This document shows, one piece after another, positions 54,882 through 56,133 of a DNA stretch of 64,000 nucleotides (the stretch's first letter is position 1; the number at the start of each line of letters is the position of its first letter). The notes beneath the pieces are model-generated. The model saw nothing but the letters and a program-made list of their open reading frames with translations, did not search any database and was not told the DNA's origin. Source of the stretch: an uncultured virus (IMG/VR IMGVR_UViG_2734482785_000008) (lineage: Duplodnaviria > Heunggongvirae > Uroviricota > Caudoviricetes); the IMG/VR virus record IMGVR_UViG_2734482785_000008, positions 1 through 64,000 of that record; one strand, 5' to 3'. The position numbers were made by a program, and so were the translations under genes.

Positions 54882-55003
54882 TTGCGGTGCCGGGTTCCTC
54901 CCGGTGTCCTTTGGCTGGTTATCCACCGTGGACGTGGAAACAAGGAGAAATAATGGACAGATATAACCATTTCCCCGCGTGCGCTTAGCCGCATTCACCG
55001 CAA
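54882..55003 (-). ncRNA. tRNA/C4-like structured RNA unit
   Basis: TTGCGGTG...CACCGCAA closing stem, GAATGCGGCTAAGCGCA arm, CCGGG-AGGAA-CCCGG T-arm-like hairpin. Confidence 0.65.
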
Positions 55004-55076
55004 CGGAAAGAGCATTCTTGGTGGACCTGTAGATTGGGATATGAACCCGTTACAGGAGAATGCTCTTACCTGTTAC
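55000..55076 (-). ncRNA. Long-stem repeat unit A
   Basis: Plus strand CAACGGAAAGAGCATTCT...AGAATGCTCTTACCTGTT. Confidence 0.6.
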
Positions 55077-55165
55077 GTGCTCCGTTTCGTGGAGCTAACG
55101 GCGGGTGATCGGGCCGCACCAGACTGGACTTATTTCAGCGTTATGCTCATGCCAGAGAATCAAAC

Positions 55166-55263
55166 TGTGATGGTCGGTGCTGAACTCCGACACAGGGTTG
55201 TAGCAAGCCCCGCAAAGCGCGCACTACTGTAGTTGCGGCACATCAGCCTGTGCATTCACCACA
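55166..55263 (-). ncRNA. tRNA/C4-like structured RNA unit
   Basis: Minus strand TGTGGTGAATGCACAGGCTGATGTGC...GTCGGAGTTCAGCACCGACCATCACA. Confidence 0.65.
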
Positions 55264-55354
55264 ATGTTGAGAACACTGGTTGTCACGCTGCAACGCAACA
55301 TTTATTCGTAGATTGGGATATGACCCCGTTACGCCAGTGTTCTCAACGTTGTAG
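55260..55354 (-). ncRNA. Long-stem unit B
   Basis: ACAATGTTGAGAACACTGG...CCAGTGTTCTCAACGTTGT 19-bp stem. Confidence 0.6.
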
Positions 55355-55492
55355 TGCCGGTTACGGTTCCGGCCAGGCCTCTTCCTCAACGGGGTGTTCT
55401 CCATACGGACTACCGTTTATTGGTCGTTCCTGCGGTTTATGTTGTGAAGCCAGATGCTTATCTTCTGGTTGCTTCAAAGAGCTGCACTTCAT

Positions 55493-55560
55493 CACAACGG
55501 TAAGAGCACTCGATGCATTTAAGCCAAGCCCCATAAGGGAGAATGCCCTTACCTGTTGTG
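55493..55560 (-). ncRNA. Long-stem repeat unit C
   Basis: CACAACGGTAAGAGCACTC...GAATGCCCTTACCTGTTGTG. Confidence 0.6.
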
Positions 55561-55693
55561 TTGTGATGACCGGTGCTGATCTCCGGCTTGCGGTTATTTC
55601 AGACTCTCACGGGCGTTTAATTGCCCCGCCGAACAGCTCTTTTCCGCAATAGCTGCAATGTCTTTCGCGCATCAGCCTGCGCATTCATCACAA
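55561..55693 (-). ncRNA. tRNA/C4-like structured RNA unit
   Basis: Minus strand TTGTGATGAATGCGCAGGCTGATGCGC...GCCGGAGATCAGCACCGGTCATCACAA. Confidence 0.7.
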
Positions 55694-55775
55694 CGGTAAG
55701 GGTACTTCGTAGGGATTCGAACCCTCTGCCAAGCTCGGCGATCTCCGACGTCGCAAAATACCCTTACCTGTTGTG
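55689..55775 (-). ncRNA. Long-stem repeat unit D carrying a tRNA T-arm
   Basis: CACAACGGTAAGGGTA...TACCCTTACCTGTTGTG enclosing minus-strand AGGGTTCGAATCCCT. Confidence 0.6.
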
Positions 55776-55776
55776 C

Positions 55777-55852
55777 TGGTGCCGATTAACGGACTCGAAC
55801 CGCTGACATCCTGCTTACAAGGCAGGCGCTCTACCAACTGAGCTAAACCGGC
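55777..55852 (-). tRNA. trnT: tRNA-Thr (TGT)
   Basis: 76-nt cloverleaf, anticodon arm CCTGC-CTTGTAA-GCAGG, CCA end. Confidence 0.95.
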
Positions 55853-55854
55853 AT

Positions 55855-55930
55855 TGGCGATGGTGGATGGATTTGAACCATCGACCCGTTGATTAACAGT
55901 CAACCGCTCTAACCGCTGAGCTACACCATC
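55855..55930 (-). tRNA. trnA: tRNA-Asn (GTT)
   Basis: 76-nt cloverleaf, anticodon arm GTTGA-CTGTTAA-TCAAC, CCA end. Confidence 0.95.
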
Positions 55931-56133
55931 ACTTGCCGGGTACGTCTCCGGCGAGGGCTTCCACCTCCGTATGCTTTTCGGCGCACCGCGCCCTGGCTGC
56001 AATTCGGTAACAGGGGATGCACAACCCTGGCTTCCAGCGTGATTAGCGCCTTCAGCATGACGGGATATACCCGTAAATTCGTGGAACTGTACCCAAAGTG
56101 CTGTTAAGCACCGCTGTTACGCTGAAAAGAAAA

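Follow-up and report, generated by a model that had tools for sequence, protein, structure and literature searches.

What does a P1-like phage transcribe between the promoter of its ban operon and the first open reading frame (ORF) behind it? We addressed this question in a 64,000-nucleotide (nt) stretch of viral DNA (the window), positions 1 to 64,000 of the 73-kb IMG/VR virus record IMGVR_UViG_2734482785_000008. The window has the sequence of a P1-like phage; over 54800-56300, it shares 99.5% identity with P1 isolate OP279344 and, piecewise, matches the P1 reference, P7, D6, SJ46, and other records. According to the annotation of the P1 reference (NC_005856), this region lies between Pban/Op72, the C1-controlled promoter and operator of ban, and the gene tciA. 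An initial annotation of the window had described six transfer RNA (tRNA)-like units here, designated below UA, UE, UF, UD, UC, and U1 (Table 1), and had taken them for relatives of the P1 antisense RNA C4. We propose that the ban leader is an array of RNA modules with tRNA-shaped elements, from which host tRNA-processing enzymes would release stable small RNAs, and we give this reading a probability of about 0.5. The folds, the covariation, the existence of two scaffold families, their wide spread among phages, and the cassette-like gain and loss of modules are directly supported.

tRNA-shaped units upstream of tciA

All six intervals are present on the minus strand, each with a CCGG-type hairpin near its 3' end, and the start motif (G)TGAATGC or TGAAGTGC was found in four of them. 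The further claim that each unit forms a cloverleaf with a T-like arm stacked on an acceptor-like stem held for three units (UC, UE, and UA); UD is doubtful, and UF and U1 are hairpins only. We searched the interval 54870-56020 on the minus strand with a strict descriptor that required a 7/7 acceptor stem, no more than two G-U pairs in it, and a GC-rich 5-bp hairpin immediately adjoining the stem, and obtained five sites: tRNA-Asn, tRNA-Thr, UC, UE, and UA. Two hundred dinucleotide shuffles yielded 0.72 +/- 0.89 sites, and five sites were reached in 0/200. Another descriptor-rich tile (50645-51795, plus strand) was rejected as chance combinations around a terminator. Minimum-free-energy (MFE) folding returned a closed, cloverleaf-like structure for UC, UE, and UA (z scores of -1.3, -0.5, and -2.9, respectively). 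In UD, the 7-bp stem closes and the T-like arm is absent from the MFE fold; in UF and U1, only the 3' hairpin forms, and the proposed acceptor stems of 4 to 5 bp are not predicted.

In UC, a 79-nt insert separates a D-like arm (loop GGCUGA) from a T-like arm (loop AGAUCAGCA), and the acceptor-like stem has 7 to 9 bp. The D-like arm of UE differs from that of UC by one compensated change, G-C to A-U. A possible pairing of the first loop (GCUGA) with the last (UCAGC) had been noticed in two units; it is present in UC and UE, and the corresponding positions pair in 94 to 97 of the 97 relatives described below. UD shares the start GUGAUGAA, has AGAUAAGCA as its T-like loop, and is 97 to 100% conserved across all six P1-family loci compared; it looks like a decayed minimal copy of the scaffold. 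The UF hairpin immediately precedes the next long hairpin. U1 ends 2 nt before tRNA-Asn, and a related copy of it occurs in another viral contig.

Two scaffolds with a free middle

Relatives of UC and UE were collected from viral contigs with a degenerate pattern for the first 25 bases common to UC, UE, and a P7/D6 unit (at least 119 stretches) and with a pattern for the last 24 bases (at least 120 stretches). Both ends were parsed in 96 of 121 matches to the 5' pattern and in 111 of 120 matches to the 3' pattern; the family figures given here (106 units, 97 relatives, and alignment A1) rest on the matches listed from these searches. The pooled family comprises at least 106 distinct units of 56 to 212 nt (median, 123.5 nt). 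Their ends are nearly invariant (GUGGUGAAUGCGCAGGCUGAUGCGC ... GCCGGAGAUCAGCACCGGCCACCAC), the middle is unalignable, and the insert ranges from 6 to about 160 nt. The initial annotation was thus right that the scaffold is kept while the middle differs, since the middles of the relatives are completely different. Acceptor pairs 1 to 6 are paired in 97/97 units with a 9-nt T-like loop, and the bases directly before and after the unit (-1/+1) are U-A in 90/97, which extends the acceptor to 7 bp and, with the 5-bp T stem, gives 12 stacked pairs as in tRNA. A T-run follows in the same orientation within 130 nt in 53/97 relatives, at a median distance of 58 nt.

We aligned 58 de-duplicated units (alignment A1), leaving out three P1-family rows. 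In this alignment, 98.8% of cells are paired, and double changes, with both partners altered, occurred at 8 of 21 pairs, compared with 1.2 +/- 1.0 in shuffles (0/500). The double changes fall in the D-like arm (4/5 pairs), the acceptor (2/6), the T-like arm (1/5), and the loop-loop helix (1/5), where the varying pair is G-C in 48 units, G-U in 7, and A-U in 1. The G-U pairs of A1 fit the minus strand only. Extra support for the loop complementarity comes from the P7 unit, with the loops ACUGA/UCAGU, and the D6 unit, with GCUGA/UCAGU. We conclude that the GCUGA/UCAGC complementarity is real and conserved, with thin covariation.

A covariance model built from the 58 viral-contig units of A1 (R1) recovers UC and UE as members (Table 1). 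UA scores 22.7 bits, which is marginal (E value of 7.7e-5 in 4 kb and 1.2e-3 in the window), so that two of the six units are members, one is a distant relative, and three are nonmembers. Gathering-score and E-value scans of Rfam found no family for UC, UE, UD, UF, or U1; weak matches to microRNA, plastid, and transfer-messenger RNA models were taken as chance. We did not find the element in the literature via two scaffold strings or the topic of tRNA-like phage leader RNAs, a search whose reach ended before subscription journals and preprint supplements.

UA belongs with a different scaffold. The Rfam STnc100 model (RF02076; gathering score, 47 bits) matches it below threshold and over model positions 31 to 147 only, a closed multi-branch domain shaped like UA. 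Scores of 43.0 and 39.6 bits were obtained for the UA counterparts in P7 and D6, respectively, and none of the other five units has an STnc100 match at an E value of ≤10. A pattern for the 3' hairpin returned at least 125 viral stretches with UA-type relatives, of which 106 were parsed, with 64 distinct among the matches listed. For 40 STnc100-like units, including UA, an element of the Escherichia coli K-12 prophage Qin, and the P7 unit (alignment A2), RNAalifold predicted the acceptor, the D-like arm, and the T-like arm, with 7/18 pairs changing on both sides. UA, aligned with 39 relatives, has the closed domain shared by STnc100 and PasD: NNNGGUGAAU, a 5' arm, a variable middle, a CACCGGGAGGCACCCGG hairpin, and a closing stem. 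We therefore regard UA as a putative, sub-threshold relative of the STnc100/PasD group.

STnc100, PasD1, and PasD2 are prophage small RNAs (sRNAs) of Salmonella and pathogenic E. coli. STnc100 is described as a prophage sRNA with 11 copies in enterohemorrhagic E. coli EDL933, which have RNA sequencing reads and one of which was seen on a Northern blot (PMC5331693); PasD1 and PasD2 are described as Hfq-dependent sRNAs with targets identified by RNA interaction by ligation and sequencing (RIL-seq) (PMC8550237); and a preprint describes PasD as structurally related to STnc100 (bioRxiv 10.64898/2026.05.13.724894). Like these RNAs, UA is phage-borne with a variable middle, and it resembles STnc100 in its 7-bp closing stem, GGUGAAU, 5' arm, and 3' hairpin CACCGGGAGGCACCCGG adjoining the closing stem. 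Unlike STnc100, UA lacks the model's 5' leader and 3' terminator tail: downstream of UA we found no tail with an intrinsic terminator and instead the ribosome-binding site of tciA, whose start codon lies 36 nt beyond the end of UA. UC and UE differ from STnc100 in their D-like and T-like loops, which are mutually complementary. The plan is common to both scaffolds: a closing stem is combined with (G)GUGAAU, a 5' arm, and a free middle, and the 3' arm stacks on that stem.

The dicBF leader of K-12 Qin resembles the P1 leader in that a long hairpin, DicF, and then a UA-type unit (locus L130, positions 1658-1779; R1, 24.9 bits; STnc100, 34.4 bits) stand directly before dicB. Qin lacks a unit of the UC/UE type, whereas P1 has tRNAs and several tandem units. 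Faubladier et al. reportedly described processing of the dicBF transcript by RNase III and RNase E in 1990. The "dicF-like" stretch annotated in the P1 reference corresponds to a stretch of the window (Table 1) that matches the hairpin just upstream of K-12 dicF (42 nt, 86%) and not DicF itself. The DicF model (RF00039) matches neither this stretch nor 20 loci with U units (E value of ≤0.01), and the idea of DicF-like tails was dropped.

Spread of the units and exchange of cassettes

UC or the scaffold ends occur in 191 phage records, of both temperate and virulent phages; these are mostly phages of Klebsiella (57), Pseudomonas (45), and Escherichia (43), with others from Erwinia, Hafnia, Yersinia, and Burkholderia. 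Among species-representative genomes, the 5' pattern is found in 60 stretches from Gamma-, Beta-, and Alphaproteobacteria, including many Enterobacterales, Aeromonas, Pseudomonas, Janthinobacterium, Massilia, and Martelella, as well as metagenome-assembled genomes labelled Geobacteraceae and Acidobacteriota. UC itself is present in 845/5426 complete E. coli genomes, in 818 of them at ≥80% coverage and 96 to 100% identity, and likewise in lambdoid phages. Its places in these genomes are chromosomal in 715 cases and on plasmids in 237, and none is annotated among the matches listed. The P1 array matches 1022 plasmid records, 353 at ≥80% coverage.

The genomic contexts vary. In the lambdoid phage mEp460, a stretch 98% identical to UC lies downstream of the repressor gene and on its strand; the HK620 unit lies between pR'/qut and the late terminator; the unit of Pseudomonas phage PP9W2 lies downstream of cI; and that of a Klebsiella Ackermannviridae phage lies near tRNAs and a full STnc100 match. 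A tRNA is found within the flanks examined at 27/239 U loci and 12/125 STnc100-like loci, counts that are descriptive and have no baseline. In Klebsiella phage vB_KpnM-Zahir (locus L253, positions 1981-3911, plus strand), tRNA genes lie close to two U-type units, one scoring 80.6 bits and a weaker one scoring 20.8 bits, and to a full STnc100 match (51.6 bits); the stretch is annotated on the other strand as a row of tiny hypothetical ORFs and is probably another noncoding RNA array.

We compared the array module by module with six P1-family loci using BLAST. The P1 reference lacks UC and the long hairpin H3; P7 lacks H2 and UC; and SJ46 lacks UC, H3, UE, and the spacer behind UE. Where UE, the spacer, and H4 would lie, P7 and D6 have a further UC/UE-family unit, a Ser-like tRNA, and a different long hairpin, and their UA keeps only its first 28 and last 25 bases around a new middle. 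Ro157c2 has an added tRNA-Tyr. The arms of H2 have sequences in common with H1, H3, and H4, and such repeated hairpin arms flanking the cassettes are likely recombination points. A class II tRNA-like gene whose anticodon appears to be UGA lies in the arrays of P7 (L007:912-996, minus strand) and D6 (L008:917-1001, minus strand). The Rfam tRNA-Sec model (gathering score, 47) gives it 46.6 and 43.1 bits, respectively, and according to the D6 record, tRNAscan did not call its amino acid.

Along the minus strand of the window, the modules follow each other in the order H1, U1, tRNA-Asn, tRNA-Thr, H2, UC, H3, UD, UF, H5, UE, a spacer with a small hairpin, H4, UA, and the tciA start (54845). The P1 reference gives, along the tRNA strand, the "dicF-like region," trnA (Asn), trnT (Thr), tciA, tciB, tciC, trnI, and ban, and the P7 record states that the same operator controls the tRNA genes. 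ARAGORN and Rfam (RF00005) call only three tRNAs in the window (Met, Thr, and Asn), and the six units are uncalled. The long hairpins H1 to H5 are strongly stable (z scores of -3.8 to -6.6), and H2 contains the T-arm-like motif GGGUUCGAAUCCC. In this phage as in others, small GC-rich hairpins (here at 55079-55095, 55356-55373, and 55935-55952, minus strand) recur just ahead of a long hairpin or tRNA. Once cleavage has occurred, they might shield the upstream fragment at its 3' end. Elsewhere, the window has a weak GcvB-like match (9957-10143, plus strand; 30.5 bits; E value, 0.007; gathering score, 42).

Table 1. Positions in the window of the ban-leader modules and of neighboring or overlapping features
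Feature	Position	Strand	Evidence
UC, tRNA-shaped module of an unnamed scaffold family	55561..55693	-	R1 81.2 bits, E 7e-19; MFE fold is a cloverleaf
UE, second member of the UC scaffold family, 44-nt insert	55166..55263	-	R1 65.4 bits, E 4.5e-15; MFE fold is a cloverleaf
UA, STnc100/PasD-like tRNA-shaped module	54882..55003	-	STnc100 38.0 bits; R1 22.7 bits; fold z -2.9
UD, short element	55441..55498	-	R1 4.7 bits on the T-like arm only, E 1.6; fold z -0.7
UF	55349..55414	-	Robust part only hairpin GCCGG-N8-CCGGC (~55356-55373); no R1 match; fold z -0.5
U1, two small hairpins, the last GCCGG-N8-CCGGC (~55935-55952)	55932..56002	-	R1 1.8 bits, partial; fold z -0.5
tRNA-Asn (GUU)	55855..55930	-	ARAGORN; Rfam tRNA 74.5 bits
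tRNA-Thr (UGU)	55777..55852	-	ARAGORN; Rfam tRNA 72.9 bits
H1, long hairpin upstream of the tRNAs	56133..56216	-	Fold z -4.8
H2, long hairpin between tRNA-Thr and UC	55695..55776	-	Fold z -4.2
H3, long hairpin between UC and UD	55499..55560	-	Fold z -3.8; relatives in 69 retrieved loci
H5, long hairpin between UF and UE	55264..55349	-	Fold z -6.6
H4, long hairpin directly before UA	55003..55077	-	Fold z -6.2; relatives in 66 retrieved loci
Small hairpin GCUCC-ACGAAAC-GGAGC preceding H4	55079-55095	-	
Counterpart of the P1-reference "dicF-like" region	56386..56487	-	NC_005856 annotation; terminator-like hairpin at its end, 56403-56422
upl counterpart (63 amino acids in the P1 reference)	55041-55232	+	P1 reference annotation
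plp counterpart (putative lipoprotein)	55233-55652	+	P1 reference annotation

How the leader may work

In the reading that we prefer, an untranslated ban leader of about 1.6 kb would be transcribed on the minus strand from the C1-controlled Pban and would carry the dicF-like region, the long hairpins, tRNA-Asn, tRNA-Thr, and three tRNA-shaped elements. In every element, an AAU linker would join a 7-bp acceptor-like stem to the 5' D-like arm; an insert, free in both length and sequence, would follow, and the 5-bp T-like arm would stack on the acceptor. The elbow of UC and UE would arise from pairing of five D-like loop bases with the T-like loop. Host tRNA-processing enzymes may free these modules along with the two tRNAs. 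The geometry makes an RNase P cut at the base of the 7-bp acceptor, on its 5' side, plausible; the 3' side may be trimmed by RNase E or exonucleases, and the long hairpins may be RNase III sites. The scaffold would then provide processing and stability, and the insert would be the phage-specific working part, as in the Hfq-dependent PasD and STnc100. For UA, always found immediately ahead of the first ORF, the more likely role is to set and protect the 5' end of the tciA mRNA.

A bolder proposal, which we hold tentatively and consider somewhat doubtful, is that the UC/UE scaffold is a natural "tRNA handle" across Proteobacteria phages, which would hijack RNase P and tRNA maturation to excise and stabilize arbitrary cargo at the site of the anticodon arm; the ban leader would then be a multi-cargo array of exchangeable, phage-specific regulators acting at the start of lytic growth. 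In engineered tRNA scaffolds used for recombinant RNA in E. coli, arbitrary RNA replaces the anticodon arm, and the tRNA frame gives processing and nuclease resistance. Those scaffolds are laboratory designs on a real tRNA, whereas the P1 scaffold is natural and noncanonical, and the likeness is by analogy only.

Contigs covering the stretch occur in 14 RNA-library runs. In run X6, the word depth of the contigs reaches 404 over 55101-55622 and 1787 to 2850 over 55593-55683, compared with 46 to 67 in the flanks, including the tRNAs; this unevenness argues against uniform DNA contamination. Adapter letters are joined to X6 contigs at 55101 and 55626, a hint of abundant fragment ends, and a second UC copy in that strain could explain the contig breaks.

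Several observations weigh against the proposed array. A second UC copy in a prophage of the X6 strain may contribute to the depth, and the contigs show neither strand nor ends; the raw-read runs X21 and X23 gave 0 reads on the stretch. Between Pban and the array stands a terminator-like hairpin (56403-56422), downstream of which the minus strand showed no promoter-like site. The longest complementarity between the inserts and the 73-kb record is 11 to 13 nt, which is at chance level; short loop targets may still exist. No CCA is conserved after the acceptor, and the P1 units lack the terminator tail carried by relatives of known sRNA function. The fold z scores of UC (-1.3) and UE (-0.5) are not significant alone, and several helices show little covariation (1/5 loop-loop pairs and 1/5 T-arm pairs) because the scaffold is so invariant. 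Finally, the search patterns fix part of the scaffold and the parser demanded acceptor pairing, so the invariance and the acceptor pairing are partly built in; in each pattern search, the opposite, unconstrained end was equally conserved.

The absence of targets in the phage record would also fit units that are cis-acting punctuation only, that is, folded signals for nuclease cuts, tRNA release, or stabilization of neighbors, with the insert as a neutral spacer. Some relatives have inserts of just 6 to 12 nt, so cargo is not needed for the scaffold to fold and persist; units lie in leaders and adjoin tRNAs or long hairpins; and UA-type units stand directly before the first ORF in P1, P7, D6, and Ro157c2 and before dicB in K-12 Qin. 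However, the same insert is 96 to 100% identical in 818 E. coli genomes and is shared by P1-like and lambdoid phages, which argues for selection on the insert, and the related PasD1 and PasD2 have Hfq-dependent targets (PMC8550237). We regard a purely cis-acting role as rather unlikely. The same leaders, namely, early-left, late, and ban operon leaders, near terminators (a T-run follows in just over half of the relatives, as given above), would suit put-like antiterminator RNAs that act on RNA polymerase and carry transcription past leader terminators. The tRNA-like multi-branch fold differs from the two-hairpin structure of put, though, the HK620 unit sits in a late leader that is antiterminated by Q and does not require an antiterminator RNA, and P1 has several units in tandem, which together leave this idea a very small chance.

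The C4 assignment of the initial annotation fell. C4 of P1 and P7 and the CI RNA of P4, both known to be matured by RNase P, do share an idea with the units: both are processed out of longer phage transcripts, and they have variable internal arms and a tRNA-like closing stem that starts with GGUG and ends with CACC. On the resulting view, each unit would be an RNase P-matured antisense RNA that silences its own target by loop pairing, as C4 acts on icd-ant. Yet the Rfam C4 model (RF01695; gathering score, 45 bits) matched none of the units, with nothing in 54000-57000 at an E value of ≤10, in the window at ≤1, or in the 73-kb record, while the true P1 c4 was found as a control at 68.8 bits; conversely, R1 had no match on that c4 at an E value of ≤10. 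In C4, a 17-bp (7 + 10) closing helix surrounds two adjacent hairpins and has no stacked arm on its 3' side, whereas the units combine a 7-bp stem and a 5' arm with a variable middle and a stacked 3' arm. C4 also has known cis targets and belongs to immI, upstream of icd/ant; the units sit in the ban leader, and no target above chance was found for them in the record. In mEp460 (locus L002, positions 4980-5137, plus strand), a true isrK (67 bits) and a C4 match (44.2 bits, cut at the locus end) adjoin a Rha antirepressor gene, so that this UC-bearing lambdoid phage has a C4-type system and a UC unit at different places. On these comparisons, the P1 units appear not to be C4 relatives, and a silencing role of the C4/CI kind is very unlikely.

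The units could also be tRNA mimics, serving as decoys or sponges for host tRNA-binding enzymes or tRNA-directed defense nucleases. Canonical tRNAs, including the Asn and Thr tRNAs of the array, resemble them in the 7-bp acceptor and 5-bp T stem, the short linker, the D-like arm, the elbow between D- and T-loops, and the shared transcript and strand. The locus carries a variable set of real tRNAs, swapped between phages (Tyr in Ro157c2, Ser-like in P7 and D6), and a near-invariant scaffold across bacterial classes suggests a conserved partner. Unlike tRNAs, however, the units have no anticodon arm, a 9-nt T-like loop that is not of T-loop sequence, five Watson-Crick loop-loop pairs, and no encoded CCA. 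The missing anticodon arm and hypervariable middle fit anticodon-nuclease decoys poorly, and no linked defense or counterdefense gene was seen in the loci looked at; we consider mimicry improbable. It is more improbable still that conservation is due to protein genes on the plus strand, with the RNA folds incidental. The P1 reference annotates upl and plp there, over 55041-55652, and an open frame exists also in P7. None of the five ORFs here, upl and plp counterparts included, matches a Pfam family at the curated cutoff; other records annotate nothing in this region or place ORFs on the other strand; plp of the P1 reference overlaps tRNA-Thr; and the end of the frame changes with cassette gain and loss. 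The covariation with G-U pairs fits minus-strand RNA, and the same units recur in many unrelated phage contexts. As genes, upl and plp are doubtful and not disproved; their counterparts in the window, antisense to the array, are probably misannotations.

P1 is a classic model phage, yet in this region of its genome, the annotation shows two genes for hypothetical proteins, upl and plp, on what would be the wrong strand. If our reading of an RNA-module array is true, the ban leader would be a factory of small structured RNAs, and the UC/UE scaffold would represent a large RNA family outside Rfam and genome annotation, one that connects P1-like plasmids and lambdoid prophages with virulent phages of Klebsiella and Pseudomonas. 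The near-invariant ends of this family would point to a conserved host partner, and its free insert would suggest a natural route to stable custom RNAs.

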